A stretch of DNA of 63,076 nt, filler included, from Folioceros fuciformis (lineage: Eukaryota): the NCBI GenBank assembly GCA_049999805.1. It is 5 parts of 4 records of this genome, joined end to end, with 100 filler letters (N's around TTAATTAATTAA, not from the genome) between each part and the next. Parts side by side here need not be neighbours in the genome. Positions count along the whole stretch, not along the records: positions 1 to 17,091 come from JBNGIO010006090.1; 4 more parts are not named here. One strand, written 5' to 3'. The notes beneath the pieces were generated by a model. That model searched no databases and was not told the origin of the DNA. It worked only from the letters and a program-made list of their open reading frames with translations. Of the stretch, positions 1-31,599 are shown in pieces (the stretch's first letter is position 1; each line of letters begins with the position of its first letter). The position numbers and the translations under genes were made by a program.

Positions 1-2
1 GC

Positions 3-437
3 TGGACGTATGTCCATGGCTGCACACACATTCTCCAGAATGTACCAGCATCGTGGATTTGCAATCTAGACTTCTCGCACAATTCGTGTGAGCTCAACAG
101 CCAATGAAACACCTTCACCTTTGCCTCTGCCTGCTGTTGAAAATGTCTTGCATTCCCATCCTGCAGTCAACATATCCATCGGACTCGACAAGGCTTGTAG
201 CTGCTGCTTCCCCACTAGGTTCACGTATGTGGGCAGCCTGCTATGGCAGGTTTGAACTACTTTCTCGCACAACAACGTTGGGTACTGCTTACAGAACCTG
301 AGAATTTGGCTCCAAGGCATAGCCCGAGCCTTCTCATCCTTCTCCACGCAGGTATATTTGCGTACCTTGACGCCACACTGCAACACCGCTTCCAGGCCAA
401 TGCTGATTCCTGAGTAGAGCTCCAACAGATAGATGCC
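3..437 (-). pseudogene. C5-cytosine DNA methyltransferase N-terminal half (motifs I, II, IV, VI) inside the retroelement
   Basis: GIYLLELYSGISIGLEA (motif I), CVEKDEKA (II), DMLTAGWECKTFSTAG (IV, Cys codon 150-152). After the TAG at 66-68 the same frame reads IANPRCWYILENVCAAMDIRP (motif VI ENV at 27-35). Confidence 0.85.
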
Positions 438-703
438 TTACCCACCTTTCATCGTACTAAAGCATCGTTGATGCGTCGATCTCCTGCCTTGGCAGGCCTC
501 ACATCTGGGATCGATCTCTCAGGACATGTGTCTATGAGATTCCACGGTCGATTCTCCTTCCTTCGATGGTTTTCTCGAACCCTAGCTTCATCCAAATACT
601 CTGAACGCACAACCTTGAGCACACCCTTCTACTCTCTTGGGTTCGGCATCTCCAAAGAGGATAACTCCTGCTTTTCCTCCCACATCTCATGTCGATGCTC
701 ACT

Positions 704-1286
704 CTAAGCAGTGTGGGCAATCATGGCGCTGCTTCTCATTCTCGTCCTGCTCTTCCCACCACTCCTGTTCATCCTCAGGGGAATTCGTGCAACATGCGTG
801 AAATCTCCTCTCCACCAGAATGGTCTGTAGAAGGCTTTTGCGTGCAAGGGATCAACACCCATAGCAAGGTGGTGAGTTCCATCCGACCCCAGCAAGATAT
901 CATGTCTTTGCACTCGTGACCAAACATCTCACTTCAATAATGCTAGCATCCTTCGTGCCATGCTTCAACTCAATCTTCACGGGCTTCCTCGTCATTCCCA
1001 GCACCTGTTCCTTGGTGTCTGCAGAGGTGGTGATGTTCACATCGCTCGGAACGAGCGTGTGCCCGTAAAGCTTCAGTGCTTCCTGCACTTGTGCTTCCAG
1101 CAGTACTGGATTTGGTCCAGTATCTACTAGTACATTTACTGAAGCATAACCATCAAAAGTTATGTGCTTCCCAGTGTTATCAATCATGGCAACACCTCCT
1201 TCACCTCGATCCTCTAGCATCAGGTGATCTCCACACAAGCTGGCCATGCTAAGAATAGATCTTGTGGATTCAAGCTCCTTCCTCAA
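704..1286 (-). pseudogene. Retroviral-type aspartic protease, frameshifted near 905
   Basis: VNVLVDTGPNPVLL (DTG at 1116-1124). The C-terminal HDILLGSD motif lies in the shifted frame (ORF 704-913). Confidence 0.8.
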
Positions 1287-1409
1287 CCATTCTCACATGA
1301 TGTTCTTAAAGTTGTTGTCCTTCACATCCAAATCCATGAGGCTTACTGGAGGCCTTGTCCAGCAACACCTCAATGTCGCATCTTCAGTAGAGTCAGAGAA
1401 CAAAATTCT

Positions 1410-2645
1410 CTACTTTGTTCTCCTGGCCATGTTGGCTATCTCCTTCTTGGGCTCCTCCACTTGCCTGAGGAGAGCCTTGCGACTTGGGCCCTTGCCCTTC
1501 TCCTTCTCATCAGATGCAAGCTTGAGCTTCATATCTGGATGAGCTTCCCAACACACTGCCTCCATGTGACCCCATCTGCCACAAGACTTACAAGCTTCCT
1601 TGCCCTTCGGACCACCTGGCTTGTAGTCGTACTCAAATGCCTTGTGTGCTCCACGGCATCTGCCACACTTCACAGCTGCTTGGCCTGCATTGTTAGCTGG
1701 CCTCTCCTTCGGCACATGTGGCTGTTGGCCATGTCCTGAGGATTGTTCTTGCTCCCGATACTGGTGTCTTGGGACAAACCTGGAATTCTCGTGTCCTCCA
1801 GACCCGTGCTGCGAAGGGCTCTTCATGACTTTGTGATACTCCGAGTAAGCCTGGCTTACTGCATCACCTTTGAGCACCTTCTCAGTAATTTGGTAAGCAT
1901 GTATCAACTAATACTTCTCTCCCATCACTCCATGTAGCGAGTCCATCACCTTCCCGAGTCCATCACCTTCCTTCTCTGCGTAGCACACAATGCTGCCATG
2001 AAGATCTCGGCAGCCTCCCTCATTGTCTTGACCTAAAACCTTCAATCTGAGGTAAGACACGCGCAATGTCTCGTTAGGCCTGACAGAAAATCTTAATAGT
2101 TCTTGGATTTTTTCTAGTGAAGTAGAAAACATGATGGTTAGCTTGGCAAACATCAAGTCCACCAGATGCTCGAGCTTGTCCTTGTCAGTGGGGGGTGTAG
2201 TTGAACCAGCCTTCTTGGCTGCCTCGTGCATTGCCTCTCTTCTCTCGACCACCTTCAGGATCTTAGCCTTCTCATCTCTATAATACATCAGAGCCTCTCC
2301 CGCAAGGTAGGATGACATCTTCATGAACGCCATCCTCTGAGTGAACTCATCCTTGTATTTCATCTTGTTTTCCGCCATTGCCCAATGAAACTTTTCGAAG
2401 TCTTTAAGAGACATGCTTCCATGTTTTCCTGTGAAGACGTCATGCTTACTTGGTGTGAACTCAAGCTCCATTCTTGCAGACTCTCCGCTCCAATCGCCGA
2501 ACTGACTCCTTGTGACTAGCGTGTTGTCACTATGTTGTTCCGGTGTCCTCTTGAATGGTGAGTAGTAGACGTCGTGCACTTCTCCGACTGAGGATGGTGC
2601 AGGTGTCCTCTCGTCAGTCCACCCTGGCCTCAGGAATACCATCAA
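1410..2645 (-). pseudogene. gag-like region with two zinc knuckles
   Basis: MSSYLAGEALMYY resembles a gag/capsid motif. CGRCRGAHKAFEY is a degenerate knuckle and CKSCGRWGHMEAVC a canonical CCHC. In-frame TAG at 1908-1910. Confidence 0.75.
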
Positions 2646-3048
2646 TGGTTACCTCTCCTATGAATGACAACTGCACGGATGTTGTCAAAGGGCAAATTGT
2701 TTCCACCATCAGCCCAACCAGCTAGCCAGAAAAGCACATCCACTACCTCAATCCACAAACGGCTCTAGATGTATGCACGCTCTTCTCCATACAACTTTGC
2801 TAACTCAGCAATCGTATGACTACCACACCTAAGCTGCGTGTAATCAATAGCAGAATTCTTGTCCATTAGAAAACATCAGCCTATCTCTTGGCGTTGCCTT
2901 CTACAACACCTAACCTTCTCAGATCACAGCTGTCTCCTAGGTTGGATGGTAGACGACTTCTGCTTCTTCCTCTAATATAAATAATAACCAACTAAACAGC
3001 CTACTTCGTCCTTCTCAGGTGCTCTCAGGTGCTCTATTCTTGATACAG

Positions 3049-3579
3049 TGATACAGCACATATGGTTCACATCCACCATGACACATACATTCTCTCTCTC
3101 GACATGTTACATGCATCCACATGCAATCCTTCATCTTCACATGTACACATGCATACATGGCACACACCCAGGCATACATGTCATGTACAAGCCATCCATG
3201 GTCCATGTACATGGCATCATAAGCACTTCAGCATCAGGACTTATGCCCAGATGCTCCAGTCTGATGTGATGCATGTGAGGAGCCGTGCCATGGCACATAT
3301 GAACCGTTGCGGAGATATTCCAAAACAAGCATGACAAGCTCATAGTCTCCAAGGCATGGAGACCAAATAAGCTTCTAAGCATCCACAACTTCATTGGCTC
3401 TGGGCTAGAGGAAAGGAGGAGGAGGTGGTAGGCACAAACTCCTCCACATTTGGCAAGGTGTGGAGCAATTTGTGCATGAATGCCTCCTTCTACATGGTGA
3501 TCTCCTCGCGATGCATGTGTTTACTAGGTTTTTCTCATATGTGTCTAAGCCCTAACTTTAAAGATCACGGGGTGTGTCA
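3049..3579 (-). repeat. Putative 5' LTR of the methyltransferase-bearing element
   Basis: Minus strand begins TGACACACCCCG at 3579 and ends ...TGTATCA at 3049 (TG..CA with imperfect inverted termini). A degraded PBS-like CTGTATCAAGAATAGAGC follows, ~400 bp upstream of gag. The partner LTR is not in the window. Confidence 0.5.
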
Positions 3580-4158
3580 TATGAACCCTAAAAAACAAGG
3601 GATTGTGTCCGGTCCATAAGCCCCATACGGTGAGTTAAAAAAAAAGTTTGTGTATCCTAGTGAGATAGGCCCAGTGACGTGGCGATGTAGGGTGCAAAAT
3701 ATGAGAAATTCCCAAGTATATTCCTGCCCAACGTATGAGAAAAAAAAAAAAGATAAAAGATTGAGTGTAGCCGTGTCATGTCCGTACTTCACATGTTTGA
3801 CCAAGCATACATCCTCTCATAAAAGTCGACAAACAATAAACCTTTAATTCAAATATAATTCTTTTCGCCATCAAATGGGATTCTAAATGTGGGATTCTAA
3901 ATGTGGGATTCTAAATGTGAAGTATATATGAAGAAGTAAAGTCTACTATAAAATATCAATGTAATCTCATCGTGGCAAGACCTACAAAATAGAAACGCTT
4001 TGTTTCTCTTCTCGGCCCACCACCCGGCCAACTTTGAAACGAATCGCGTCTGAATCCAAGTGTTCTTTAGAGTATGTAATGCAAATATTGAGCGTGAAAA
4101 ACTATACTTCCACTGACCGTTCACCTTCCAAAAAAAGAACCAGCAGAATTACGGCAAA

Positions 4159-7100
4159 CTACACTAAAATTTTGTTTCTAACCTTTCCCCTCCCGCTTCC
4201 ACCTTTTCTCTTTTTTTCTGCCCACTCTTGATCATCGTCATCTTCTAGTTCGGCATCCCCATCGGTCTCAAGATCAGAAACAGCAACCAACGTACCATCT
4301 TTCCTTTTAGGGATCTTATGTAATGGGTGCCCAATACCTGTGCCACTAACCGCCTCACAATGGCCTGAGCGGAATCTCTTTTTTGAGCTGCTAACGGAGT
4401 AAACAGAGTAATCCGTTGCGTCTTCTTTCAGCAGCCGTTTGAAAGTCTGCACCGGCCAGGAACATAGGTTCAGAAAACGATATGTTACAAACGTTCACCA
4501 CCTACTTCACCACGATCAAATCCATGGTGTACCTGATACTGCTCCAACATTCCCCGAATTGTAGTTGGACACGCGATTGGAAGCTCTCGTGGGCTAAATT
4601 CCTTTATGTTCTCTTTCCTCTGAAGAGCCTCCCCAGTCTTCGCATGTTCAGTAGGCATAAATGCCTAAAGCATGTTTGCCCATCAGCCCATCAGCATCTA
4701 CACAAATTACAAGTGTGCAAGAACGGGCAAGATACAACATGAACATACTACTCCTTATAAGAAATTCATCAAAATTTAGTCACACCTGGCATCGAGCATC
4801 ATTCAGGCCGTAGACAATCTTTAAATGTCGTTTCAACCTTAGCAGCAAAGCTAGAGCAATTGCAGCACGACATTCCTCCTGAGCAACAATACACCAGTGT
4901 TTCAGCCCTCTCCATGCTCAGCTACAGTCTTCCATGAGTGGAAAGGAATGTTCGTGGATGTGTTATGACGGTCCTGGAGCTTCACCTTCAATTTTGCTAG
5001 AACTCCCTCCGAGATTTCTCCACTTTCCTCACCGACCACAACATTCCTTTTGCAGTCATGACTGCTCGTGTTGTAGTCATAAGCATCAACTCCTTCTTGT
5101 ACCCTTTCTGCAGCCATAGCAGCTAAGATTTTTTCTGCGACACTTCCAAGAGGTTCCTCTGAGATTGTTACCTTCAAACTCGACTCAAGAGCCCCACCCC
5201 TCACTTGCACAATGCGGTTTATTGACCAGATAACATAAAGCGGTTCTTCCGGCAGGCTAAATGGAAGTGAAGCTATTACTTCAGCGCAGTACCTGGCCAG
5301 ATCAGCAACAGTGTTGTGGTCACCTTTCCATTTCAAGTCCTACTCGAACAATCATTCCCAGCCCCGCCATCCCTTCAGGCTGGTGATGTGTGCCCAGACC
5401 AAAAACAAGCACAGAAAACACAACCAGGCACTTGACGATTGATATACAAGACATTCTTCAGTCAGCCCAAGCATTCTCAGCATTGCAAAATCACCATGCT
5501 TGCATAAGTTTGACCAAGGAAACAAATGGATCAGGCACTCTAAGACCTGCCCAAATAGTAGACCACAATTGAAAGGCTAGGGGGCTCACACTAGGAAGGG
5601 GATAAATGGTACACCAGTCGCCACAGAATCATATTTCCGAAGAACAGATCCAAGAAACTTATTCCTTGCAACTCGAGTGCTCCTTATGAGTTTGTAAATC
5701 CGTGCAATTCCAGCTTTTGCTGAGACTGCAGTACTGCAGTCTTCTTTCACCTTGGGGCGATGCTCCATGGAGCTCAAATCCTGTGTGGAAGCAGCAGCTC
5801 CAGACTGTATGAACGTGAATGACAACTGCAAACCATCGCCCAAACGAGATTCAAAAAAAGATGGGTACCTGCACCAGATGCACCAGCAATAGTTAGCATA
5901 CAGAAAACATACCAAACAATTGTCCAGATGAGGGGCATTACTTTTCGTTCATGTGGATCACAAGGCGATGTGCGAGCTTTGAGGTCGATTCTTGTTGATC
6001 CACCTCCAGTGCCACGAGTTGAGGAACGCAGGACATTGGATGAACTAGGCCCTGCCGAAGTACTATTTCCAACACCTGCGGAGACAATAAAACTTGTTGG
6101 GAACAAAAACACATACATAAATTCTGCAAATTATAGCTTCAGTCACTAAAATCATGAGTAAGAACATTGGCAACCAATGCAACCTTCAGTGCAGACAGCC
6201 GCACATCATAATTCATATCCAAACACCTCTCCAGAATAAGGTCCCAATGTAATTGGATAATTCCGCCACCAACATTACTATCTCCTGCGCCTGCTGCAAC
6301 TGGAACGATGTTGGATCTATCCTTGCCAGCTTCATGCGCACCCATTTGATCCTCGACATCAGACAGATAGTCACAAAAATTCCGTAGCGTTTGCAGCTGC
6401 ACATCAGAACCTCCATCAGGTTGTAGACAAGAGCACCTGCCTCCAATGTCAACAGCAAAGCCTACCTTAAGCCTAGATTCGGCAGAGGCACAAAGAGAGG
6501 CCTCCAAGATTTTCCCAATCTCTTTCTCCAACATAAAGCTAGGGCGAGCAATGAAGAAAACTCCGAGGGCCTTCCACCAGTCATATACCAAATTAAGAAA
6601 CTTGCCGGTCAACAAAAATTGTAGTTCCCCACTTGATAGAATGAATTACTCAGACCAGCAAAACAAATCACACTAAACCAAGCACCAGCTATCCTCTGGA
6701 TCTGCCCCAGTACAAATACCTGTAATGCCTTAGATTTCACATCAAACTCTGGTAACCGAAGGTAATCCTTCAAAAGGTCTAAAACTCGCTGCATGGAAAT
6801 CCCCTCTTGACTCATGCAATCCACCAAATCAGGGCAATAGCGAGAAAGCATGCCGAGGCAGTAAAGGCAGCGAAGAATGTTCTGCAGCAACCACCACCAA
6901 CCAATCAAGGGGATTCAATGTTCAATGCAGCTCATGGGAATAAGATAAGGCTGCACATGTAGCAGTGGGGTAACAGACCAAAAGAAAAATGAAAAACCTC
7001 CTCAGCAGCCAAATGCACTGATCCTCACCGCCTTCTCAGAGCCCAGAAATTGACCGCCACGTTTTCCATCCAAGACTCTGAAGAACCGTCGAACCAGGAA

Positions 7101-10100
7101 CTCGTACGAGGTAACTCCCTTCGGAGTTACTTTGCTCAGCGAACAAAGACACCTACAAGAGCATTCTCCAATGAGATTCCTCACCTGCCTTAGATGTAGG
7201 ACTCCCAAACAAACTGCACTTATGAGAACACAAATCTCTTGGATCCAAATCATGTCTCATTTACGACAGGTTCAGAAGAGGCAAGCTCTGGGCTTCATGG
7301 AAACCTACTTGATGCTGGCATGTATGACAGTCTGAAAAGAGTAGCGTTGAATAAGTTGCCTTAAATCCTTGGAAAGCTCTTCCACGAAGGTTTGAGGAGG
7401 TCTTCGCAACATGGGAAGTACTGCATCTACAACAAAAACAATACTCTGTAGCAGTTGTGCTACTTCCCGATTATCCACCTGCCAGAAGATAATGTCAATA
7501 CCTGATATCTTAGCTAAACCTGCCATGTCAGTGAACCTTAGAAGATGAGTGCAAGCACCTGCGTCTTTAAGTATGGCTGCAACGTGACAGCAAAACTAGA
7601 CGGGTCAGAGGCAGGGGCGCATAGTGTTGGATCAACCATGCAGAAAGCGTGCAGTGCTGAAACATAGGGCAAAGCACGAATCTCAGGTTCTCCTGTGGAC
7701 GCCTCCTCAGCCTGCAGACATACCACCGAATATGATAGAATCCATAGATTAAGCTTAGTGAATCTGTTAGGCTGTGCACCATCCAAATCAAGGCTATGCG
7801 AGTCTTGCTCGACAGTTTGACAAGGCTGCTGAATTTCAACAAAAAACATGGACCGCAGCTCAGTTATTGCCAATCGTACCTTTAGGATGCTCTCCAGTAA
7901 ACACCTGCACATTAGTTCACAGCGGCCCCTAATGGCAGCTTGACTGACTGCCAGTGTAGCTGAAGTTTTAGCAGCTTGTGGGGCAAAATCGAGAGAGAGA
8001 CTGCGCTTTATGATGGTGACTATCGGCTGATTCGTTGGCAGGCTTTTCAGTACATCAACTAACTGCTGAGTTGAAGTAGCAATCTCAATTGGAACTGCGC
8101 TTGCATCTGCACTGTGATGAGAGTGATGCCCTACATGCTCTTCAAACCACAGCTCGTAAAAAGTCCTGCCTACAAGATCCTGAGATCAAAAGCCAACCAG
8201 GTAAACGCTCAGCCTTGAAAGGGATTATTATGGAAATAGCAATATGATCCTCCCTCAACATGACCCTAAGCATAATGTTGGACAGAGTGCTTGTGAGCAT
8301 CTGCACACCTGAATAGTGCTCTCATCATCATTGATGCGAGTAATAATTTTCACACAAGCGTCTGTTGATTTAGTGAACCCTAGATTCGCTACACACACAT
8401 CCCGAATTATCTTTATAACCCTTTTCCGGACACTTACACCTGTGTCCATTATACGCTCTGCTAGCTTTTCAAAGTACTGCCAAAAACCGATGCATGGTGT
8501 ATAGTCAACACACAAATACCAGCAGCAAAGATTGACAGCGGTCCGCAACTGGAAGACTGATGCTAACTAGCTTCGACGCGGATAGCTTGTGAAGAGCAAA
8601 AGCACAGCTACACACAAACATACTAGCATAGACTTGCATACAGTTGCGTAGAGCTGTAACATAGATGCATTGCAGACCAGCACAGAGTTGCATATCAATT
8701 TCCATACCTTTTCAGCAACATGAGGAAGCCGAACAATGTGACGACCTACGAGTTCCATGGCTGCCTCACGGACTGAAATTGCTGAATCTAAGAATCTGCC
8801 TTCAACTGCAAGCCGCACTCGTTCATCACCTAGCACACCAGGGTCAACTTCGACCAGGGCACTCACCTAAGGCAAATAACCAGCCAGTATACCACATCAC
8901 TCAGGAGTTGCACAAAAAAACTACATTCCCAAGGGCTCTAAGACAATGTCAAGGTAACACTGCCAGTTTCACTGATATCATCAAGTCACAAAGCTCAAAG
9001 ATGCGCTCAATACAAGAACCTTGAATGCAGAGCGTGAGAGCACGCACCGCTCGAAGGGCTTTGGCTCTAGGGCCTGATGAGTTTTCCTGCAGGCTAGCCT
9101 GCATATCCAGAACTCACGGTTAAGATTGACCAACTTGGGCTGGCTTCAGAGCGTTCTCAGCCTAATACCACTACTGGTTTGGAGAAATCTGTATGCCTTA
9201 CAAGTAAACAGATCAGCGCGTAAGAGACTATTTGTAACAGGAAATGTACAAGTGAGGGATGAGAAGGCATACCAGCAACCTTTCAAGTATCCGATCATAA
9301 CCTTTTGCGAGAGGCCTTTGCTGCCCTAGAACAGCCGCAAGCCGAGTAATCACATCCCTGGAAAGAGGAGCAGGTGTCACTCCAAACTCCTGACCTGGTG
9401 GCCTGGAATTGAGTCTTCTGAGATGATAGTCCAGAGTTTCTAGCCCCTGTGCTTCGTCATCACGGTACCATTGACACAAATAGAACCTGAAAGAGAAAGT
9501 ACAGTTCAATCTTCATCTCTTGCAGTATTGTAAATTTTTTGTTGAAATGCTGTGCAATTTACCTACTTGAAGTAAATACTGACCTGCGCGCAAAAGATGC
9601 CACAATATCACTCTCACCAGCCTCTTGCAAGTAGTTCAACAATAATTGCTGAATAATAGCCACGCCTTCTACGGAAAACCTGCCAACTACGTCCCTTTGC
9701 TGATCAACACCCTCTACAGACTTCCCACCAACATCATGCTTCAGGTTAAAGGAACTTGTACGTGCACCAGCACCTGAATTGCTTCCATTCCTAAAACATT
9801 CGAGTTGTTTCTTACACAGGCAGCAACAGCAAAGCCAACCACGGCCGAGCAAATCATGTCCACCGAGCCCAATACAATCTCCATGAAAGATTCTTGTGCA
9901 TTCTGCACAACACACAACAATCTTGACCCCTTTTCTTACGCCGCGACACACTACACAACCCTGGTATACAGAGGGGTTGTCACATATCTCCTCAGATCGT
10001 CCTGTTACTTTCCTGTCAAACACTTCTGACAAAATCCACATGGTATCTTGAGCACATGTGACAGCATCTTGCTTGAGGCGCGCAGCAATAAGACCAAACA

Positions 10101-13100
10101 GCTCAATGGCTGCTCCTCTAACATTTGCATCTTTCGACTTGAGGCCCGCCGATGAAAAAAGAAGAATGCAAAGAATCTACACAGACGAGAAGTTGGTAAG
10201 CAAGCAAAAACTTTCCACAAGGTCCTGACATCTACTCTACTGGCACTAGTTCGGTGATTACCTGGAGCATAAGGCTGGCTGCTGGAAACTCAGGGGAATT
10301 GAGGGAGGTCAGCAAGTCAACCACAATGTTTTCAACAATTCCCTTCACGTCAATACCATCCTGTGACCTGGGCGCGGCCCACCGTTGTAAGACGAGCTTC
10401 CAAAACTGTTTACATGTATCCATTGCTGGGTCCATACATTTGGCCGACAGCATTGAGCCAGCTTCTATGATGAGCTGAGATTCGCCATCCCTCACAGGAA
10501 GATTCACAGAACACTGTACCAGCTGTAGCAGGAGAGCAGTTAACATCTGAACCAGTTTGGGATCCTCATCAGGGAGAGAATACGATCGGATGAAACGCCT
10601 TGATACAGAAACTTTCCAGAACATGGATACACATTCTTCTATAATGAAATTACGATGCTGAGGATAGCAGCTGAATATCTGCAGTGCATTTGGACACGTC
10701 ATCTGCTGCCAGTGAATGGACATGTGAACAAAACTAAATACGGACACTGAGAACTTAAATGTGATAACAATCATCGTATCCACAGTGGGGCCGGTTGGAT
10801 CATTGCCCATGGCCACAATCAACACAGCAGGGGAATACAGATCACAACACAATCATCGTGGGTAGAATTGAAAAATCAAGTATTTGGTGAAAACTGTTGA
10901 ACAACGATAGAGTAGCAGAACGCTGCAACAATGATATGGCAGGGATGAATGACTGACAAACAACTCACACTGCAAGCGACACCAATTGCTTTCAGCTGCA
11001 GAAGTTGTATGTTGTCCACACCAAATGTGGACAATATAGTGGTTGTCAACTGAACCACACTGCTATCAGTCAACCTTGCGACTGACATGAGATCCCTCAG
11101 CAATGCCAAGATAGTACAGAGTTTGTGCAAGACACAGGACACTGCAGTGGCGACCCTGCAAACACGAACGAATTTCAGCCAACACTTTGAGGAGACTCGC
11201 AATTCTGAGGAACAGGATAGAGGGACTTACATCTACCTGGTAACAAATTGGGTAAACACTCCAACAACAAGAAAAAGTGCATGAACCAAGACTCACAAAA
11301 CAACAATAGTGGTTACTACAATTTCAACTATCCTCAGAACTGATCGACGTGCACCTAGGCCAGGACTTACATCCAGCTTAAAGCTCAAGCCATACAAGAT
11401 TGCCTGACACAACATGCACTTACTTTACACTCCCAAGTCTCAAAGTTTTAGATGACTTCGGCTTCCGCCGCCCTTTCTTTCCAACAATCATTGCAGTATC
11501 TCCTGGGTCCTCATCCACTTCATCATTATCTTTATGGTTCAGGCAGTAGACATTCCAATTAGACCTAAAAGAAATCTGTCCATATGCCAACAGCAGCAGT
11601 AAAGAAGAGCTCAAGCTTCAGCTGTTGTTTCACACCAGGCAGTCACCTTCATCAACATGTGGGCCCAGACACTTGTGAAGTTGCCTGTACATGGGGTCAT
11701 ACGCTGGGAAAATAGAGTGGGCAATTTGATGCCGTGTAAAGCCGATAATTCTATCAATAATCTGTGAAAGAATTCTGCAAAGTTAGACATTTGAAAAGAA
11801 AGAAAAGAAAACCTACCGAAAGACATGAAAGCCAGCTCCAAGTTCAAGGTCAACCTCTTCTTTGTAGACTTGCTTGGGCATACCACAATCTGTCATTATG
11901 CTCAAACAGGCATGGACAGCCTCCAACGCAGAAAGCACTAGAACTGTGTTCTCAGAATCAACCTGCGGTCAGTTATATCCTTGATGTGATTCAACAGCAA
12001 TATAGCAAAGTATTAAATGTTGCAAATCGAACACATACAGAGGAAATGAACTTGATAGTTTCCATTCACTTGGTCGAAGAGAAAACAGGCTAGACATAGA
12101 TAGAACACAAGGCAGCGTCATTCACCTCATTTTTTACCAGTTTCAATGCGAAAAAGGAAATTCAACTTACATCTACGTCATCTACCACCTTCTCATGGGC
12201 TCGATGTACATGGCGGTCTAACAAGGTAAGCAGTTTGAGTAGGTATTCAGCAGGTAGACCCTGCAGGTCATTCTTTCCTCGTAATTTGACAACATCTTCT
12301 ACTACTCCTTTTACTTCCAAAAGTGCAAGAAACGTGCCAGCCTCTTCCCCCTCGTCATCCCCAGGGGCATCAGTGCGCTGGAAAAGCTCATCCAACACTC
12401 CACAGAAGGTACTCACGACATCTGACAGCAGAACTGATACCTGAGCACTTCAATTTTCAATAGAGGGTGCTACCAGGTTGCATCAAAGAGGCACAGTACC
12501 ATTATGGATCTCATCAGAATCTTCAAGTAGGTTCACTCCTTGCTCTTTGTCTCTATGAATTGACTGATCTTTCCTTGTCATCCTTTTTTTTCTCGTCACC
12601 AAAGTAGCTTGATCATCCAGCACCTTGACAAGAAGTGACAGACACAAGAAGACAAACGACAGTAAGCTCTTTGATGATGAGAAGACACCTTACCACCTTC
12701 TCATCCCGGCAGTTCATATCTTTTCATAGGTTCTCAGCATGATATATGTTCTGTCACAATTATTTAGCGGTTTAAATCTTTTAAGTCACAGGCAAGCAGG
12801 CCTACCAAAGGAGCTTCCGTACACAACGGCATTGCCGCAAGCTGAGGAACTTGTGGAGCATCCCCTACATAGCTTCTAGTCAAGAAATGACTTGGTTGAT
12901 TTTTCTCCTTCTTCCCAGCAGCAGAGATCCGTGACCCCTTCCGATTGATTGGTCCTGAGAACAGCTGCCATTCAATTCCTGAGGAGAAAGGGCTGGGACA
13001 GAAATGGAGTGCTGACAAGTGAAGCGTTGTAATAAGAGACTAGGTAGAACCTGGTGTTGCGTAGCTGAAAGCTTCGGGGTCGATTCTCAGCACTTCATCC

Positions 13101-17833: not shown

Positions 17834-20587
17834 AATTCTCCTTTTTATTTGAGTTTAAGAGCCTTGTTATAGTGCTCTTACTTTTGGGATTCTGCATCTT
17901 GCTTCAACTAACTTGTTTTAACCTCCTTTGAGCATGGCGGGGGTGACATCTCAAGACATCTCAACAAAGACATCTCAACAGGAGCGTTGTCATGCCGAGG
18001 TCGGGCATCGAGGAGGCAAATGTGGTACAAAAGAACACTAACAAGTTGCTCTTATGGCACCAAAGGCTAGGACATCTTGGCGTTCAAAACATCAAGCTCA
18101 TGGATCGTAAGAAAATGGTGCAAGGACTCGATCTTGGTGAAGACGAAGACATTGGTGTTTGCAAAGGGTGTATTATGGGTAAGGAACACCGCCTTCCATT
18201 TCCAAAGCAAGGAAGTAGATCCAATCATTTGTTAGAGGTGGTGCATACAGACATCTGTGGTCCCATGAAGACCACATCCATAGGAGGTGCTAAGTATTTT
18301 CTTACCTTCACGGATGATAAGTCTAGATATACGAAGGTGTATTTTTTGAAATCCAAGGAGGCATGCTTCTCCAAATTCAAGGAGTACAAAGCATTGGTGG
18401 AGAACCAAATTGGGAGAAAGATCAAGAATCTACGAAGTGACAATGGAGGGGAGTACATGTCCAAGGAATTTGAGATGTTTTGCAAGGAGCACGGAATTGT
18501 TCATCAATTCTCAGCACCTTATAGTCCTCAACAAAACGGAGTTGCAGAACGCAAAAATAGAACTTTGGTAGAATGTGCAAGAAGTATGTTGCACCATGGA
18601 GGATTGGGATATGAGTTTTGGGGTGAGGCTATTGCAACTGCTGTGTATCTAACAAATAGGAGTGTGACTGCATCATTGGAGGGCATCACACCCGAAGAGT
18701 GTTGGACCGGAAGGAAGCCTTCCATTGCTCATTTGCATGTCTTTGGGTGCAAGGCATTTGTGCATAAGTCCAAGGAGATAAGAACCAAGTTGGAGGCAAA
18801 GTCAGTGGAGTGCATTTTTGTAGGTTATGACTTGGAGAGAAAAGCTTTTCGATTGTATGACAAGGGAGCGAAGCGTGTCATAATTAGTAGGGATATGATT
18901 TTTGAGGAAAATGGAGTTGCTATCACTAAGATTCCAAATGTGTCTATTGTGAATGATGATGATGACTTTACAGTGGCCCTAGAAGAAACAACAAGGGATG
19001 ATGCTTCTATTGAAGAGAACAAGGGGATTTCTGATGAAGGAGAAGTAGAGGAGCAAGCACAAAGGCAAGAAATGCCTCCACCAAAGAGGTATCCGACAAG
19101 GGAGCGACGGCCACCTAAGGATTGGAGAGAAGGACCAGAGTTTGCTTCCATTGCTATGACACACGGAAGGGAACCATTGACTGTGGCTGAAGCTCTACAA
19201 GGGAAGGATTGCGAGCACTGGAAAGAAGCCATGGATGAGGAGATGAGGTCCCTTGAAGGTAATGATACGTGGATGTTAACAACATGGCCCGCAGGGAGGA
19301 ATGCCATTGGGTGTAAATGGGTGTTCAGAATCAAGAGAAATGCAAGTGGGAAAATTGATAGATTCAAGGCTAGGTTGGTGGTGAAGGGATACTCCCAAGA
19401 GGAGGGCATTGACTACAATGAGACATTTGCACCAGTTGCCAAGTTTGCATCCATCAGAACCTTACTTACAGTGGGAGCAATGTATGATTTGGAGATTCAT
19501 CAAATGGATGTGAAAACAGCATTTCTAAATGGGGACTTGGAGGAAGACATTTACATGGAGCAACCCCAAGGCTATGTAGTTATGGGCAAGGAGAACATGG
19601 TTTGCAAATTGAAGAAAGCTCTTTATGGATTGAAGTAGGCTCCGAGAGTTTGGCATCAAAAGATTAACTCATATCTTTTGGAGCAGGGTTTTCGGCAATG
19701 CATATTAGATGAGAGCATCTCCATTTTTGAGGTCTCCCAAAGTAAGGTAATCTTAGCCATATATGTGGATGATCTTATCTTGTTGAGTCCATCTTTAAGC
19801 AGTATTGATAAAGTGAAGGAGATGTTGTCAAAGAAGTTTGAAATGAAGGACTTAGGGAACATCAACTATTGTCTTGGAATTGAAGTGTGGAAAGATAAGG
19901 CAGCACATATCATTAGGCTTGGTTAGCAAGGGTATGTTGAGGGATTATTGGAGCGATTTGGAATGATCAATTGCAAGCCTATTGGGACCCCTTAAGATTT
20001 AGGTGTGAAGTTGTGTAAGGTTGACTACTCATCAAATGATGGGGAGGAGCATGAGATGAGTAACATCCCATATAGGGCAGCAGTTGGTAGTTTGATGTAT
20101 GCCAGCCATGGTAGGAACACGTCCAGACATTGCAAAGGCAGTGGAAGTAGTGAGCCAATTTATGCAAAGCCCTGGAAAGCAACATTGGATTGCGGTGAAA
20201 AGGATCATGCAATACTTGAGGGGTACAAGTGATATGTGGTTGGAATTCTCTGGTGGAATCAAATGCCATAATATTATTGGGTATTGTGACTCCGATTGGG
20301 GAAGTGATCTTGATGATAGAAGATCAACTACAGGATATACTTTTATTTTAGGAGGAGGTGCCATTACCTGGAATAGTAAGAAGCAACCCACGGTGGCCAT
20401 ATCGACAGTTGAAGCTGAGTACATGGCATCCACACAAGCCACCAAGGAGGCCGTATGGTTGAGAAAGCTCATGGAGGAGATTGGTTATGAACAATTGCAT
20501 CCGACCACTCTTAGGAGCGATAGTCAAGGAAGTATGGCCTTGATCAAGAATCCAGTGCATCATGCAAGGACAAAGCATATTGACATT
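17834..20587 (+). mobile_element. Ty1/copia pol (GAG-pre-integrase, integrase, RT, RNase H) preceded by an LTR end; pseudogenised and interrupted at 20588
   Basis: LWHQRLGH..C..C, VHTDICGP, LRSDNGGEY, QQNGVAER, QMDVKTAFLNG, YVDDL, DSDWG, HARTKHIDI. Stops at 19636 and 19924, frameshift near 20103. Confidence 0.95.
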
Positions 20588-23500
20588 TGTTCGGACAGAA
20601 CCATGGCTTGGGTGCACAAGGAAGCAAAGCAAGTCTTATTCAGAATAATTAGATAATAATACATTAAGAAAGTTCATGTGTCCTAAATACTTCTATAAAG
20701 GCAACCTTACGTAAAGGTGTGTCTTTTGGTGATTAAAGAATAATTGGCTTTAACTAAACCCTAAGTCGGGCTAGCTTAAACCCTAATTCTAACACCCTCC
20801 CTTAAGCGCACGAGCTTAGAAAGGAATCAGAAGTACAGTCACAAGGAGCAGCTAATCTGAAGTTCATGTCACGTAAGCAATTATGTGTCAACCACCACAC
20901 TCGAGTGCATGCGAAGCCAGCCTGGATGACGATAAATGGAGCCTCAGCGCCGGGGCTGTCATCCTCACAAGCACACAAACCTGTGAGCGCGGGATTCAAG
21001 TGGCAAGCTTTCAGTGAAGACTGAGGGTTGGCTTCAGCGGATGGAGGTCACAGTGCAGCGCCTGATTGTGAAGCGAGAGGCGCGCAGAAGAGAAGAAAGA
21101 AGTAAGAAAACAATTATCCTGGATAAGTTCTGCTGTAGCTGTGCAGGGCGATTAGAACATCGTGGAGCTTCATCCACCTGTCTGCAAGATTGCTTGCATC
21201 TGCACGCCACACGTAGGTCTTGGATCCTTGTGTGACTGTAACAGAACTGATACCCTTCCTGTCCATGTACTGCAGCTCCTGAAGTGTCATAGGAACAGAG
21301 AGGTGTAATCCAGATCATCACTGAACACCAAGGTACCCAGATCTCACCCATAAGCTGATCATCACGGCTATGTTGCAGCCTTAAAATATTGTTGATAATT
21401 GAATAGGCCGAGACCTTCCATATGCTTGACGTGCTTGTCTTTCGGCAAAGCTTTGGTTAGGATGTCCGCTGTGTTATCATCTGTGGGCACATAGAGAATT
21501 TTAACTACCCCCCTCTCAGCGGCATCTCTAACGTAATGGTGGTGGACTTCGATGTGTTTAGTGCGGGCGTGGAAACGAGGATTCACCACCAGGGCTATCG
21601 CAGACTGGTTATCACACCAGAGGGGAGTAGGTCCTGTTTGTGATTCCCCAATATCTTGTAAGAAAGCACGCTCCCACTGAACCTCTTTCGTGGCATCTGT
21701 TAAAGACTTGTACTCGGCCTCAGTGCTAGAGAGGGCAATACTCGTCTGTTTTTTACAGCTCCAGTTGACAGCAGCCTGAGAAAGTAGAAAAACATATGTG
21801 GAAAGGCTTTTCCGGGAGTCACTATCAGAGGCCCAGTCCGCGTCTGTGAACCCCTTCAGAGTTAAGTTTCCTGTTCCATGGCGTTTATAACAGAGGCCGA
21901 TATGATGAGTGCCTTTCAAGTAACGAAATATTCGTTTGACAGCAGTCCAGTGAGCAGGCCCAGGGTTTTCTAAAAATTGAGAAACAGTACTAACTGAGTG
22001 CTGTATATCAGGGCGGGTCCAGTTGCTGACAAAAATCAAACTGCCTACAGCGTGTCGGTAAGGAACATCTTGCATATCCTTTTGATCAGCTTCTGTAAGA
22101 GCACACTCATATCTAGTGAGCTTGGCACCTACTGCACCTGGAGTGGTAGCTGGGTGTGCAGAGCTCATGTGGAACTTGTGAAGAATTTCAGCTATGTATT
22201 TATGCTGGTGAATGATAAGGAGTCCTTCAGAGCGAACGCGAAGTACTTGAATTCCTAGACAGAACAGTAGATCCCCACTATCTGTCATCTCGAAGGTTTG
22301 CCTTAACATATCTTTGACTGTGACCAGCATAGAGGTGTCATTAGCAGCAAGGATTACATCGTCGACATACAGTGCAAGAATCACGTAAGTATTTCCCTCC
22401 TGCAGGACATAGACATTAGAGTCCGCTGTACACTGTCGAAACCCTAGTGCCTTTAGAGCTTTATCACAACGTTTGTACCAGCGTTCTGCACTTTGCTTTA
22501 AACCATATATGCATTTAATAAGCTGACATACATATTCTGGATGTGCAGGGTCCTCATAACCCTCCGGCTGTTCCATGTACAGCTCCTCTTCTAAAATGCC
22601 ATGCAAGAAAGCTGTGCAGACGTCCATCTGCTGCAGCTCTAGGTCATACTCTGCAGCTAAGGCGAATATCAGACGGAGTGACTGGGCACGTACTACAGGA
22701 GAAAATGTCTCCTGATAATCAAGTCCTGCCACTTGTGTAAAGCCTCTAGCACAGAGTCGTGCTTTGTATCTTGCAATTTTCCCTTCAGCATTGAGTTTAT
22801 GTTTAAAAACCCATTTGCACGTGATTGGTTTACGGTTTGGAGGTTTGGGAACTAATTTCCATGTGCCATTTTTGATCAGGCTGTTGTATTCATTATCCAC
22901 AGCGATTTTCCATTTATCCTTATCAGGTCCTGTAAAAGCTTCTGTAAGGCTGATAGGCTCAAGAGGAACATGTGGAGAGACTACAACAGCACCTGCTGTA
23001 TGGCGGAAGTCTATAGATTGATAGCGTGGTTCTTTCCATTCTGAGGGTGGGGGCTGGTGCCGAGAAGACCTACGTGGTCCTGCATCATCTGCTAAAGGGG
23101 CTGGAGCCACCAAGGGTTCAGCAACAGCATTTGGATCCTCAGCAGCTAGACCAGGTAAGTTACTCGCCTCATCATGGCCTACGCCTTGTCCATCTTCTTC
23201 AAAAAGAAGGTCAGGGAACAAATCATGGTCATCCTCGTTATGGTGTCTGAAGTCCAGGTCATCTGGGCCTAACATGTTGGCCTCATCTACTGCAGGTGCT
23301 AGAGGTTTGTCTTGATCACGTTGAATATCCTCAACATCTGGTAGGAGTGTTGGATTCTGTAAATTTGGAGCAACATCCAGATCGCCTGGAGGATCAGCCA
23401 CATTACCAACAGCAGGCATGGCACCATCAGCATCATCAGGGTAAAAGGAAAACAGTCCAGCAGGTTCATCTAAGTCATTTGAACTATCAGCAGGCTCTGG

Positions 23501-24205
23501 CAAAGGTCTGGCCTTTCGGTCAATAGGCTGTAAAGGCTCAACAAAGATAACACTTCGGGCTAAAACCAGCTGCCTTGAATGTGGATCTAGAAGCTTATAT
23601 GCTTTTACATGTTCACTGTACCCAATAAGTGTGAGACACCGAGAACGATTGTCTAACTTCCTGCGTTTTTCTGCAGGAATATAAGCATAGGCTTTAGACC
23701 CAAAAACCCTGAGATGTAGGAGACTAGGTTTTTGTTTCCAGGTAAGCTCAAAAGGTGTGGCAAAGACAAGGGACCTAGTTGGCAATCTGTTCAAGATATA
23801 TGTGGCAGTGACTATAGCTTCAGCCCAGTAAGAAGAAGGTAAGCCAGACCACAACAACATAGCCCTGGTCATACCCATCAGCGTTTGGTTTTTACGTTCA
23901 GCAACACCATTCTGTTGCTGAGTGTATGGAACTATTAATTGATGGATGATGCCTTGTTCTGCCAGAAAACTGGTGAAAGAATGGTTGACAAATTCAGTCC
24001 CATTATCCGACCGGAAGACCTTCAATAGAAGACCTGTTTGTCGTTGAACCAAGAGCAACCAGTCCTGGAACAAGGTAAAGGTTTCACTTTTGCGCTTCAT
24101 AGGAAAAATCCAAGTGTATCGACTAAAATCATCTGTAATGCTGAAATAATATTCTGCCCCTCCAAGTGATGGAACCTGAAGACGGCCAGAAATGTCACAG
24201 TGAAC
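20588..24205 (-). mobile_element. Young Ty1/copia element nested in the previous one; 3' LTR 20588-20794 with adjacent PPT; 5' part lost in gap
   Basis: Minus strand reads PPT AAGGGAGGG, then TGTTAG...CCGAACA. The insertion cuts the host RNase H just after KHIDI. Confidence 0.9.
21368..24205 (-). CDS. Copia pol, uninterrupted integrase-RT-RNase H reading frame (>910 aa), open up to the gap
   Basis: VHCDISG...DDFSR, RSDNGTEF, QQNGVAER, QMDVCTAFLHG, YVDDV, DADWA, HARTKHIEV, ADILTK, with no stops. Confidence 0.93.
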   Translation of the reverse strand, partial: VHCDISGRLQVPSLGGAEYYFSITDDFSRYTWIFPMKRKSETFTLFQDWLLLVQRQTGLLLKVFRSDNGTEFVNHSFTSFLAEQGIIHQLIVPYTQQQNGVAERKNQTLMGMTRAMLLWSGLPSSYWAEAIVTATYILNRLPTRSLVFATPFELTWKQKPSLLHLRVFGSKAYAYIPAEKRRKLDNRSRCLTLIGYSEHVKAYKLLDPHSRQLVLARSVIFVEPLQPIDRKARPLPEPADSSNDLDEPAGLFSFYPDDADGAMPAVGNVADPPGDLDVAPNLQNPTLLPDVEDIQRDQDKPLAPAVDEANMLGPDDLDFRHHNEDDHDLFPDLLFEEDGQGVGHDEASNLPGLAAEDPNAVAEPLVAPAPLADDAGPRRSSRHQPPPSEWKEPRYQSIDFRHTAGAVVVSPHVPLEPISLTEAFTGPDKDKWKIAVDNEYNSLIKNGTWKLVPKPPNRKPITCKWVFKHKLNAEGKIARYKARLCARGFTQVAGLDYQETFSPVVRAQSLRLIFALAAEYDLELQQMDVCTAFLHGILEEELYMEQPEGYEDPAHPEYVCQLIKCIYGLKQSAERWYKRCDKALKALGFRQCTADSNVYVLQEGNTYVILALYVDDVILAANDTSMLVTVKDMLRQTFEMTDSGDLLFCLGIQVLRVRSEGLLIIHQHKYIAEILHKFHMSSAHPATTPGAVGAKLTRYECALTEADQKDMQDVPYRHAVGSLIFVSNWTRPDIQHSVSTVSQFLENPGPAHWTAVKRIFRYLKGTHHIGLCYKRHGTGNLTLKGFTDADWASDSDSRKSLSTYVFLLSQAAVNWSCKKQTSIALSSTEAEYKSLTDATKEVQWERAFLQDIGESQTGPTPLWCDNQSAIALVVNPRFHARTKHIEVHHHYVRDAAERGVVKILYVPTDDNTADILTKALPKDKHVKHMEGLGLFNYQQYFKAAT

Positions 24206-24491
24206 NNNNNNNNNNNNNNNNNNNNNNNNNNNNNNNNNNNNNNNNNNNNTTAATTAATTAANNNNNNNNNNNNNNNNNNNNNNNNNNNNNNNNNNNNNNN
24301 NNNNNTAATCCTAGCTACTTTAGGGTTACAAACTATTATTTGTATATAACTCTTTTTGCTCCATTATTGAAGATGCTTTTTGCCTTATTATCAACTACTT
24401 GCCTTTGCATGTTAGTTTACTTAGCTAGGTGCATGAGGCCTATTATTTACATAGTATCAGAGCTTGATGCCTAATCTTTGTTGCTTGTGCA

Positions 24492-29000: not shown

Positions 29001-31599
29001 ATGGCAATGATACATGTCTGTAAGCAAGAGTACAAGACATGTTGCGAACTGAGTTTGAAATGACAAATGTAGGGGACCTGAAATTTTGTCTTGGTATTCA
29101 GGTGTTGAGGGTACGTGAAGAAGGCCTGATAATTATTCATCAGCGCAAGTATATTTCAGAAATCCTTCAACGTTTTAACATGGCTAATGCACATCCTGCA
29201 AATACATCTTGTGCTAGTGGAGTAAAACCGACCAAGGCTGATTGCCCTATCTCTAACCAGGACATGGCTGCTATGAAAGAAGTTCCCTACCGTCATGCAG
29301 CTGGCAGTTTGTTATTTGTGAGCAACTATACCCGGCCAGATATCACATATGCTATTAATACAGCCTCTCAATTCTTGGAATGTCCTAGTCGTAATCACTG
29401 GACTGCCATCAAACGAGTATTTCGTTACTTGAAAGGAACACATCACTATGGCTTACGCTACAGGAGGATAGGGGTAACACCTACCTTGTCAGCCTTTTCC
29501 GACACTAACTGGGCGTCCGATGGGGATACACGTAAGAGCTTATCAACATATGTATTCTTCTTACCCTCTGCAGATGTCACCTGGAGTTGTAAGAAACAAA
29601 GCAGCATAGCCCTTTCAAGTACTGAAGCTGAATACAAATGCCTTATCGATGCTGCGAAAGAAGCTGAATGGGCACATTCTTTCCTCTCCTCAGTTCACTA
29701 CGAACAGGCATCACCCACTATGCTATACTGTGATAACCAATTTGCCCTAGCCCTTTTAGAGCGTCCTAGGTTTCATGCCAGGACGAAGCACATAGAAATC
29801 GCACACCACTATGTAAGGGAAGTCAAGGCTAGGGGAATCATCAATCCTGTCCACATCCACATTGATGAAAATACTGCTGATGGTCCTCACTAAACCTTTG
29901 TCTAAACAAAAACATCAGACACACGTCGAGGGGTTAGGCCTCATAGATTTTTCTCAATACTTTACTGCATGATGACAATCTTACATGGCAGCGAGACTCA
30001 CAGGGCTCCCAACAAACCTAGCATTTCTTCTGTGAGCCTAAGTTTTGATTTCACTATATGCTTATAACTGCACAAGATACATAGACAAACACCTATCAGA
30101 CTCCATCTTCATACTCGATTTTGGACTGTCACCCTCTTGCATGTTTAGTTCAGTTTTAGTGGGAGCAGGATCAGCCAAATGTTTTCCATGTGTCCAGCGG
30201 ATGAAGCTACACACTACTCTAATCCTGTNNNNNNNNNNNNNNNNNNNNNNNNNNNNNNNNNNNNNNNNNNNNNNNNNNNNNNNNNNNNNNNNNNNNNNNN
30301 NNNNNNNNNNNNNNNNNNNNNNNNNNNNGCACCTACCTCTAGAACGATGCGCGTCTCACCTTCTTTGGCGCGTACAGTCCACAAGCCTCCAGCACCTTCA
30401 GCACTTCCCTATACTCCTCCACACTTAGCTCTCGGTCGTCGTCCCTTATCTTCACACTCGTTTCAACTTGCAGCTTGAGTTGGGCACCGCGCGCCTGTGC
30501 CTCCTCCAACAACCTGATTAGCTCCTTGCACTCCTCCTCAGCCCTGGCAAGATTGATCAACACATGCCTATGGGCCGTGGTTGACCAGATCTTCTGTGAA
30601 GCCGCAGATTTGCTGGAGTCGCGAGACTCCTCTTCTTGTTTTCTGCTCCTCTGCAGGCACCTCTGACTGGAGATTTCTTGCTTCAAAGGTTGTACCTTGT
30701 CTGCAGAGAGTTAGAGGATCTATGGTGCTGCAAGGGAGGTGTGAAGATCGCGACTTCCAGCTGCAGCAGTGACAATACGGGTTAGGTTACAGGCAGCCTC
30801 CTTATTTCGGTGCCACCTTCGCATAACGGAGAACGGATAACGGATAACGGATAACATATAACGGAACGGAGAACCTTATCCATTTGCGGATAAAGTTTAA
30901 ATAGCTTTTTTAATTTAACCCGTCGAGCTTAAGTGGGAGTGTTAGAAAAAATAACCATCGAGGGTTAATTAATCCTAGCTACTTTAGGGTTACAAACTAT
31001 TATTTGTATATAACTCCTTTTGCTCCATTATTGAAGATGCTTTTTGCCTTGTTATCAACTACTTGCCTTTGCATGCTAGTTTACTTAGCTAGGTGCATGA
31101 GGTCTATTATTTACAATGGTCATCCTTAATATTATTTGTAGAAGTTATAGCTTCATCTACTTGTTGTAGGATAGGAACTATTTGCTCATACAGCTCATGA
31201 AGAGGTGTAAATTGTAAAAGTTCAATTTCAAGAGAAACAAGATCATCACTATGGTTAGAATAAGCTGAGGGAATGGTATTGTGATCAATCATATCAAACT
31301 AAGAGATAAGAGGTAAATTGTCTTCACTCTCTTTAGTATATGTGATGACTCTATCAACAACTGCCATTGATCTAAAGTTATGTTCATTGAAAGTTACACT
31401 TCTTGCATATGATATCTTGTTCTTTGATACATCATACATTATGTGCTCGATTACCCTAGGCTACATTCACACAATAACTTCACCACCATACCAAAGCATA
31501 CCCTTTTAGGAAGTTGCCAACAATACCTAACTAGTGCTTAGGCTCAAGGCTAGATGAGGCAAGATAGCTTTCAATAGAGTAAATCTAGGAATCAATAGC

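Follow-up and report, generated by a model that had tools for sequence, protein, structure and literature searches.

The window, as we call the whole stretch of 63,076 nucleotides of genomic DNA that was analysed, carries at its left end the remains of a retrotransposon with a methyltransferase domain. On the minus strand of positions 1-2648 a gag-like open reading frame (ORF), a CCHC zinc knuckle, a DTG aspartic protease (retropepsin) and the first half of a C5 cytosine methyltransferase, the methylase, follow each other in this order. The window's left end cuts the element inside the methylase, after motif VI. All parts named in a preliminary description of this DNA were located, i.e. gag, knuckle, protease and the methylase motifs I, II, IV and VI, the last one indeed past a stop. 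The features are listed from the upstream end of the element.

2649..3330, minus strand: upstream non-coding part of the repeated unit (long terminal repeat, LTR, and/or leader); the outer edge is approximate and set by the drop in contig depth
1911..2648, minus strand: gag-like ORF of 246 codons from ORF calling, ending at TAG 1908-1910
1938..1971, no strand: perfect tandem duplication of 17 bases in the last part of the gag-like ORF (100% matches over 2.0 copies of period 17 in Tandem Repeats Finder)
1413..1907, minus strand: nucleocapsid-like ORF of 165 codons, ending at TAG 1410-1412, with an exact CX2CX4HX4C knuckle at 1551-1592
903..1292, minus strand: retropepsin N-half, 130 codons, DTG at 1116-1124, bounded by TGA 1293-1295 and TGA 900-902
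692..919, minus strand: retropepsin C-half in another frame; frame break near 901-919, located by tblastn to P0002
441..691, minus strand: decayed linker from protease to methylase; second frame break beside 439-440
3..437, minus strand: N-terminal half of a Dnmt3-like C5 cytosine methyltransferase with motifs I, II, IV and VI, cut by the window end
396-428, minus strand: methylase motif I, LLELYSGISIG
336-347, minus strand: methylase motif II, VEKD
129-164, minus strand: methylase motif IV, AGWECKTFSTAG, with Glu-Cys-Lys versus the canonical Pro-Cys-Gln
66-68, minus strand: TAG stop within the methylase
27-44, minus strand: methylase motif VI, YILENV

The gag-like ORF, the knuckle ORF, the protease N-half and the methylase are in one shared frame without introns, as had been described; the protease C-half is in a different frame from the rest. 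The open stretch of the methylase before TAG 66-68 comprises 123 codons and carries motifs I, II and IV. The methylase lies inside the element's own gag-pol frame, which is the arrangement of the Gypsy-DNMT3 kind.

Only one element end lies in the window and no second terminal repeat was found within it. No LTR can be demonstrated for this copy because its 3' part lies past the window's left end. Upstream of gag neither the end of an LTR nor a terminal repeat in inverted orientation was recognised. A stretch starting with TGG at about 2630-2645 may be a primer binding site; the window contains no tRNA gene. Searches of the 63 kb window with the element (tblastn and blastn) yielded no further copy.

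We assign positions 1 to approximately 3330 to a Ty3/Gypsy-type element of the Gypsy-DNMT3 kind and read them as the 5' part of a copy that is old and dead, with a probability of roughly 0.85. Membership in the Gypsy-DNMT3 kind as such is highly probable.

Relatives of the element and type of the methylase

The individual parts of the decayed copy were identified with different clarity. For the gag-like ORF there was no Pfam match at E<=1 and weak tblastn similarity to the N-terminal parts of the database proteins P0040, P0151 and P0024 (E=0.002-0.003); the label gag is given tentatively, from position and this weak similarity only. The protease N-half matched the Pfam families Asp_protease_2 (E=0.011) and gag-asp_proteas (E=0.037), both under the cut-off. 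P0002, an open frame of 607 amino acids, is collinear with the window over knuckle, both protease halves and methylase at 35-49% identity. Its residues 10-56 align to 1527-1667 in the knuckle ORF (49% identity, E=5e-11, tblastn). The protease N-half is 46% identical over 99 residues (E=8e-24, blastp), and residues 346-421 align to 919-692 in frame -2, i.e. the protease C-half (35% identity; joint E=2e-32 with the N-half, tblastn). The methylase is 43% identical. Protease end and methylase start are about 70-90 residues apart in P0002 and the linker in the window gives a similar spacing.

The same order was found with Pfam in P0053 (GAQ93235.1) from Klebsormidium nitens (knuckle 297, protease 598-691, methylase 833-971) and in two proteins from Closterium, P0046 (knuckle, protease, methylase) and P0151 (knuckle 194, protease 369-421, methylase 603-655, reverse transcriptase (RT) 994-1144). 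P0099 extends through the later domains as well: knuckle 530, protease 796-888, methylase 978-1226, RT 1421, RNase H 1664 and integrase 1895-2061, the latter consisting of an integrase zinc domain and an integrase core. Because the same order and spacing recur in open frames elsewhere, we consider the methylase a part of the retroelement and not a chance neighbour; the claim of the preliminary description is borne out by P0002, P0053, P0046, P0151 and P0099 and by a high-depth contig which bridges the protease and the start of the methylase (see below). With P0099 as a guide, the missing 3' part of the window copy would complete the methylase and continue into RT, RNase H and integrase.

Domain profiles were built from the Pfam coordinates of these relatives and run on 251 fetched relatives. 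A protease before and/or an RT after the methylase was present in 35 proteins, and in 119 the methylase was located after RT/RNase H or before the integrase. One protein had methylase, protease, RT, RNase H and integrase in this order, 93 had the methylase alone, being mostly fragments, and three remained, one each with an integrase only, with a methylase then RNase H, and with no domain found. Database names were available for 7 of 26 methylase relatives looked up, six from Closterium and one from Klebsormidium.

A FastTree of 207 methylase domains was calculated over the 144 columns covered by the window, a short alignment with poorly supported deep order. All but one of the 113 proteins with the RNase H-methylase-integrase arrangement formed one clade (support 0.95). 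The Closterium and Klebsormidium groups were outside of it, as was the window, which fell in a small group of six domain-only fragments (support 0.74) and not in the Klebsormidium group.

The relatives also include a large Gypsy group with RT, RNase H, a Dnmt3-like methylase, integrase and a C-terminal PHD finger, in some proteins accompanied by a G-patch (P0019, P0039, P0102, P0121, P0145, P0044, P0105, P0140, P0146); in the literature searched no paper on this arrangement was found. A third arrangement is realized in P0050 (2531 amino acids), where the methylase (589-642) precedes the protease (889-993), RT, RNase H and integrase. One methylase module thus occupies three different places in Gypsy polyproteins. 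P0325, a 1974-residue polyprotein of RT, RNase H, integrase and PHD with a methylase, bears the NCBI label 'Minisyncoccia bacterium' from a metagenome-assembled genome; probably it is a eukaryotic contig binned into a bacterial genome.

To which type does the methylase belong? The match to the Pfam family DNA_methylase (PF00145), proposed as a check in the preliminary description, was obtained at E=6.7e-4, yet its 19.6 bits are under the gathering cut-off of 22. Of 31 relatives scanned with Pfam, 26 had DNA_methylase at E<=1e-3. A phmmer search with the 145-residue fragment against 1.84 billion representatives returned 292 proteins at E<=1e-3, of which 36 reached E<=1e-10; the top match had E=1.2e-21 and 44% identity. 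When longer proteins were sought by word index with just the fragment as query, no relatives came up, whereas phmmer and the profile search did find them. Judged by these comparisons the methylase signal exceeds chance.

Motif I (SGISIG, within 396-428) and the ENV of motif VI align with the family columns. In motif IV the Cys, which aligns on the Cys of the Pro-Cys motif of M.HhaI, is kept while Pro is replaced by Glu and the following Gln by Lys. In an alignment with 20 relatives the full-length members go on into the blocks AHRxRxxWTN, ERExAMG and LLGxxMD, which we label motifs VIII, IX and X after those of Dnmt3; VIII and IX lie close together. The window fragment and 17 relatives (18 sequences) were made into a profile, which was run against all PDB sequences. 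The best match was DNMT3A (E=8.4e-21), followed by DNMT3B (E about 2e-19), M.HhaI (E=4e-12), plant DRM (E=2.3e-9 for the best chain, 1.4e-4 for chains labelled DRM2) and DNMT2 (E about 2e-4); DNMT1 had no chain among the 58 PDB matches listed at E<=1. At the family level the methylase is thus assigned to the Dnmt3 type by profile similarity to DNMT3A/3B. With these cellular enzymes it shares the presumed AHRxRxxW-type motif VIII and the short VIII-IX region. Unlike them it comes without PWWP, ADD, a plant companion domain or introns, is encoded in a Gag-Pol frame and has the Pro of the catalytic loop replaced.

Two other identities were considered and dropped. A DIRS-type adenine methylase does not agree with the motifs and with the profile matches, all of which are of the C5 type. 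A cellular DNMT3 or DRM gene of the plant, whether entire or fragmentary, does not agree with the absence of introns, the position directly downstream of a retropepsin in frame and a depth of 54-66x that of single-copy DNA.

The Glu-Cys of the catalytic loop is not peculiar to the window. Glu-Cys-Gln was the commonest form of motif IV, with 68 against 42 Pro-Cys-Gln among the 123 recognisable motifs in a first set of 156, and 61 against 8 among 84 recognisable in a second set of 90. Ser-Cys also occurs, e.g. in P0002. Motif VI reads ENT, not ENV, in 61 of the 90 proteins of the second set, and EHL or EHV in some Closterium members. The Cys and the Glu of motif VI are conserved in at least 90% of the 18 aligned sequences. 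No assayed enzyme with Glu-Cys-Gln was found in the literature searched.

Copies of the family in the same organism

Contigs from four runs of the same organism (X1-X4) were placed on window positions 1-6000 at a likeness threshold of 80%. Positions 3401-6000 are covered by zero-difference contigs at a depth of 7.66 (X1) and 9.95 (X2), which represents the single-copy flank. From position 1 to about 3400 the window is also covered by contigs of depth 410.8 and 456.3 (X1) and 611.9, 657 and 639.6 (X2). Summed in bins, depth is 230-1050 up to 3400 and 4-14 from 3401 on (X1, X2). A zero-difference single-copy contig spans 3299-3832. The abundant version is 85-91% alike to the window, with about 9-13% substitutions plus gaps, and its depth is 54-66x that of the single-copy flank, the methylase part included; at 55-56, inside the methylase, it is 402 (X1) and 592 (X2). 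A single contig covers 379-1377 at a depth of 611.9 and runs from the protease into the territory of methylase motif I. Low-depth contigs represent further diverged or deleted versions, one of them without 802-1380.

Contig depth is not a copy count; a 54-66x word depth of a de Bruijn contig means that many near-identical copies have been collapsed, and this indicates a young, abundant subfamily. The family is therefore multi-copy and abundant in this organism, in agreement with the earlier statement that the lineage persists. In the DNA contigs methylase depth equals gag-protease depth, which speaks against the chance juxtaposition considered in the preliminary description. At 330 the contigs of other copies have a loose end; according to a hand reading of 30 letters it is stop-free in the methylase frame and closer to the conserved pattern of the family than the window is.

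The window copy itself is dead, as had been noted: there are 12 stops in the gag frame from 2648 to 1, the frame breaks twice (near 901-919 and beside 439) and a 17-base duplication is private to it. Four of the stops are in the linker 441-691 (687-689, 588-590, 582-584, 519-521) and two beside it (699-701, 438-440). The 17-base duplication at 1938 is missing from the abundant version in the high-depth X1 and X2 contigs. Its length departs from that of the window at 901 and 439-440 as well, where the frame of the window breaks; these breaks, too, are probably private to the window copy. At the Gln of motif IV, which at least 90% of the 18 aligned sequences retain, the window copy has Lys. Beside the young, abundant subfamily the window copy would be an older, diverged relic.

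In X4 the neighbouring host gene is represented by contigs with CT..AC joints, i.e. by minus-strand spliced sequence, and X4 therefore is RNA at least in part. Three contigs of the abundant version were present in X4 (330-944, 1604-1954 and 1988-2899) at a depth of 2.8-7.5, where the host gene has 127; they hint weakly that the family is transcribed. In a run search no RNA run was listed as containing the stretch.

Two further observations concern these runs. X3, which shares its sample with X1 and X2, has 284 G>A and 89 C>T places, far above the other runs, and looks like a bisulfite-converted library; if so, methylation of the family could be read from the raw reads of X3. Some X1 and X2 contigs, part of them at a depth of 264-394, join 3012/3013 to 3328 and 3057/3066 to 3268/3269 on opposite strands. 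The shorter side of these joints has 34-60 letters, the region is rich in CATG-type palindromes and the window itself has no inverted repeat at 3012-3328. Other copies may be inverted or folded back at this place, or the palindromes may have misled the assembly.

Host and neighbouring genes

The host was placed with a gene elsewhere in the window, Nup98-Nup96 (35135-41016, plus strand), which has FG-repeat exons and a Nup96 part in one open frame of 966 codons. Its closest database relative, P0157, is 52% identical. Identity is 49% to P0158, whose cluster includes NUP96 of Physcomitrium patens, 43% to Adiantum and Ginkgo, 40% to Amborella and 39% to Chara. A Nup96 tree was calculated from 21 rows and 1158 columns, with algae thinly sampled by Chara and one long-branched Closterium. 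These two and two other rows split from the remaining 17 with a support of 100/99. Within the 17 the window with P0157 (100/100), the moss pair (100/98) and ferns plus seed plants (100/99) form an unresolved three-way fork. As judged by this tree the host is probably a land plant and, because Nup96 sits with land plants outside of ferns and seed plants, of bryophyte or lycophyte grade. The seed-free plant of the preliminary description is thus likely.

The element is located about 600 bases past the 3' end of a host gene of the Nipped-B/SCC2 kind (3927-10852, minus strand; Nipped-B_C E=2e-4, PHD finger E=2e-4). RNA contigs show the splicing of this gene, the CT..AC joints being located at 4446/4533, 4663/4785 and 4877/4985. 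Between it and the element, in the single-copy spacer, there is a perfect 14-base tandem repeat of 3.1 copies (3876-3919). The window further contains three Copia-type polyprotein remnants with integrase and RVT_2 (17947-20656, 21368-24253, 27291-29893), one of them a 961-codon frame which is open except for a run of N, an Ariadne-type gene and a SUI1-domain gene. An ORF at 60952-61680 on the minus strand has a TEX47 domain (E=1.4e-18). The TEX47 family goes along with the ability to form flagellated cells, and its presence would be in keeping with a host whose sperm swim.

Known elements, alternatives and significance

Three sources are drawn on here: de Mendoza et al. 2018 (PMC5890265), a 2025 paper (PMC12344493) and a 2026 preprint (10.64898/2026.05.21.726589). 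The closest described counterpart is KnitGypsy-Dnmt3, a Gypsy element with a Dnmt3 in Klebsormidium (de Mendoza et al. 2018, PMC5890265); the preliminary description was right in naming Klebsormidium as a source of DNMT-carrying retrotransposons. Both elements have an intronless Dnmt3-like domain in a Gypsy polyprotein and the order knuckle, protease, methylase. Over 146 residues the methylase of Klebsormidium P0053 is 30% identical to the window (E=3e-17). They differ in motif IV (Pro-Cys-Gln in Klebsormidium, Glu-Cys-Lys in the window) and in the host, which is an alga there whereas the window goes with land plants in the Nup96 tree. Furthermore, few copies of KnitGypsy-Dnmt3 are present in Klebsormidium (PMC5890265) compared with the 54-66x single-copy depth here.

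Closterium polyproteins (P0151, P0046, P0014, P0013, P0024, P0025, P0012) have knuckle, protease, methylase and RT in one protein. Their methylases are 30-33% identical to the window, several with EHL or EHV for ENV, and motif IV is Trp-Glu-Cys-Gln where the window has Trp-Glu-Cys-Lys. These proteins from Zygnematophyceae are annotated just as unnamed or hypothetical, and no paper describing them was found in the literature searched. The Gypsy polyproteins with a PHD finger from green algae and metagenomes (P0019, P0102; Haematococcus lacustris, Chlamydomonas eustigma) have a homologous methylase, mostly with Glu-Cys-Gln, placed between RNase H and integrase, whereas in the kind to which the window belongs it is between protease and RT. 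Other methyltransferase-bearing elements are of different descent: SymbioDIRS-Dnmt3 and SymbioLINE-Dnmt of Symbiodinium (PMC5890265) are of the DIRS and LINE classes, and the domains of EpiLTRs of Cymbomonas and Euglena (10.64898/2026.05.21.726589) are sister to DNMT4 and of other origin. The respective authors treat the Symbiodinium and EpiLTR elements as independent acquisitions.

DNMT-bearing retrotransposons in print come from dinoflagellates, Klebsormidium and, lately, Cymbomonas and Euglena. The 2026 preprint names 'streptophytes (Gypsy-DNMT3)' (10.64898/2026.05.21.726589), the 2025 paper mentions DNMT3 within retrotransposons of streptophytes and dinoflagellates (PMC12344493), and a published statement has such elements absent from land plants. 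In full-text literature no DNMT-bearing retrotransposon from a land plant was found to be reported; subscription journals and the supplementary tables of PMC5890265 and PMC12344493 were outside this search. The kind of element has been known since 2018 with KnitGypsy-Dnmt3; new are the host, which is likely a land plant, and the great number in which the family occurs in it. Possibly the Closterium members, the RNase H-methylase-integrase-PHD group and the Glu-Cys loop are also unreported.

In a live copy a single polyprotein would comprise gag, zinc knuckle, aspartic protease, a Dnmt3-like cytosine-5 methyltransferase, RT, RNase H and integrase. Translated as a section of Gag-Pol that lies between protease and RT, the methylase would be packaged together with the machinery of reverse transcription and either released by the protease or left fused. 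It may then methylate cytosines of the new cDNA in the particle, or DNA at the insertion site. The element would thus carry the mark by the time it enters a methylated host genome. Methylation of the cDNA has been proposed for those DNMT-bearing elements which synthesise it prior to insertion, either to avoid looking foreign or as self-restraint (PMC5890265). The window copy itself has no activity of its own. That the methylase of live copies is a working DNA methyltransferase acting on the element's own DNA is, by analogy, conceivable, and we put it at slightly less than even odds.

Several points weigh against the identification of a Gypsy-DNMT3 element with an active methylase. An LTR pair, RT, RNase H and integrase are not visible for the window copy, and 'LTR' may be the wrong word for the ends because the repeats of the Klebsormidium element are arranged as in DIRS elements (Fig. 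4c legend, PMC5890265). The low Pfam score comes from half a domain that contains a stop, and the fragment alone against PDB chains gives just E=0.58 (M.HhaI). Motif IV is Glu-Cys-Lys in the window and mostly Glu-Cys-Gln in its clade instead of the canonical Pro-Cys-Gln, and even the Klebsormidium domain with its Pro-Cys-Gln, from the single Gypsy-DNMT3 member assayed, gave no detectable methylation in yeast (PMC5890265). Carry-over of a DNA repeat of about 60 copies could equally give the depth of the family contigs in X4. With a threshold of 80% the match of other copies to the window ends at 330, and the nucleotide link over the whole methylase is one of depth and not of one bridging contig. 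This last point, together with about 250 bases of decayed, stop-bearing sequence between protease and methylase, would also be expected if a fragment of a host DNMT3 gene or of another element had by chance come to lie beside an unrelated gag-protease, or if the assembly were wrong. Such an accident is very improbable. It does not explain the same order and spacing in open frames of other organisms, the high-depth contig across 379-1377 and the RNA-run contig across 330-944, a methylase depth equal to that of gag and protease, or a methylase in the gag frame without introns.

If the Gypsy-DNMT3 element is accepted, its host and its biochemistry have to be weighed. Were the host a streptophyte alga, the element would be one more algal example beside Klebsormidium and Closterium, all named element relatives with this domain order being algal; Nup96 of the window has no close database relative, the three-way fork leaves room for such a placement and the algae in the tree are just two. 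We consider this rather improbable in view of the 100/99 split which puts the window in the group of 17 with mosses, ferns and seed plants, apart from Chara and Closterium, and of the identity of 49% to the Physcomitrium patens cluster as against 39% to Chara. Somewhat less improbable, though still unlikely, is that in this clade the methylase-like domain has ceased to be a DNA methyltransferase. As a pseudo-enzyme or an altered enzyme it may bind DNA or chromatin and guide integration, or methylate RNA; the identity of the element would be unchanged, its mechanism would differ. The replacement of Pro by Glu in most motifs IV of both sets, the ENT, EHL and EHV variants of motif VI and the inactivity of the Klebsormidium domain in yeast agree with a loss of the original function. 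However, the Cys and the Glu of motif VI are kept, and motifs I, VIII, IX and X are retained in full-length members, which fits selection on catalysis. The yeast experiment says little since human DNMT3B failed in the same assay and the authors call the negative result inconclusive; SymbioDIRS-Dnmt3 domains produced de novo CG methylation in yeast (PMC5890265).

The whole picture, i.e. a land plant of bryophyte or lycophyte grade with a recently amplified, possibly transcribed Gypsy family encoding a Dnmt3-like methyltransferase with a Glu-Cys loop, is tentative, with the chances a little below one half. If true, land plants would here have their first example of a cytosine methyltransferase encoded by a transposon, contradicting the published absence, and the Gypsy-DNMT3 lineage would have crossed the transition from water to land. 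Dozens of copies could add a de novo methylation activity of their own to the methylome of the host. The Glu-Cys versus Pro-Cys loop poses a directly testable enzymological question. Methyltransferase-bearing retrotransposons make the usual silencing weapon a part of the parasite. An abundant family in a seed-free land plant would close a gap and provide a plant system with methylome tools, in which one may ask what a transposon gains from a methylase of its own.

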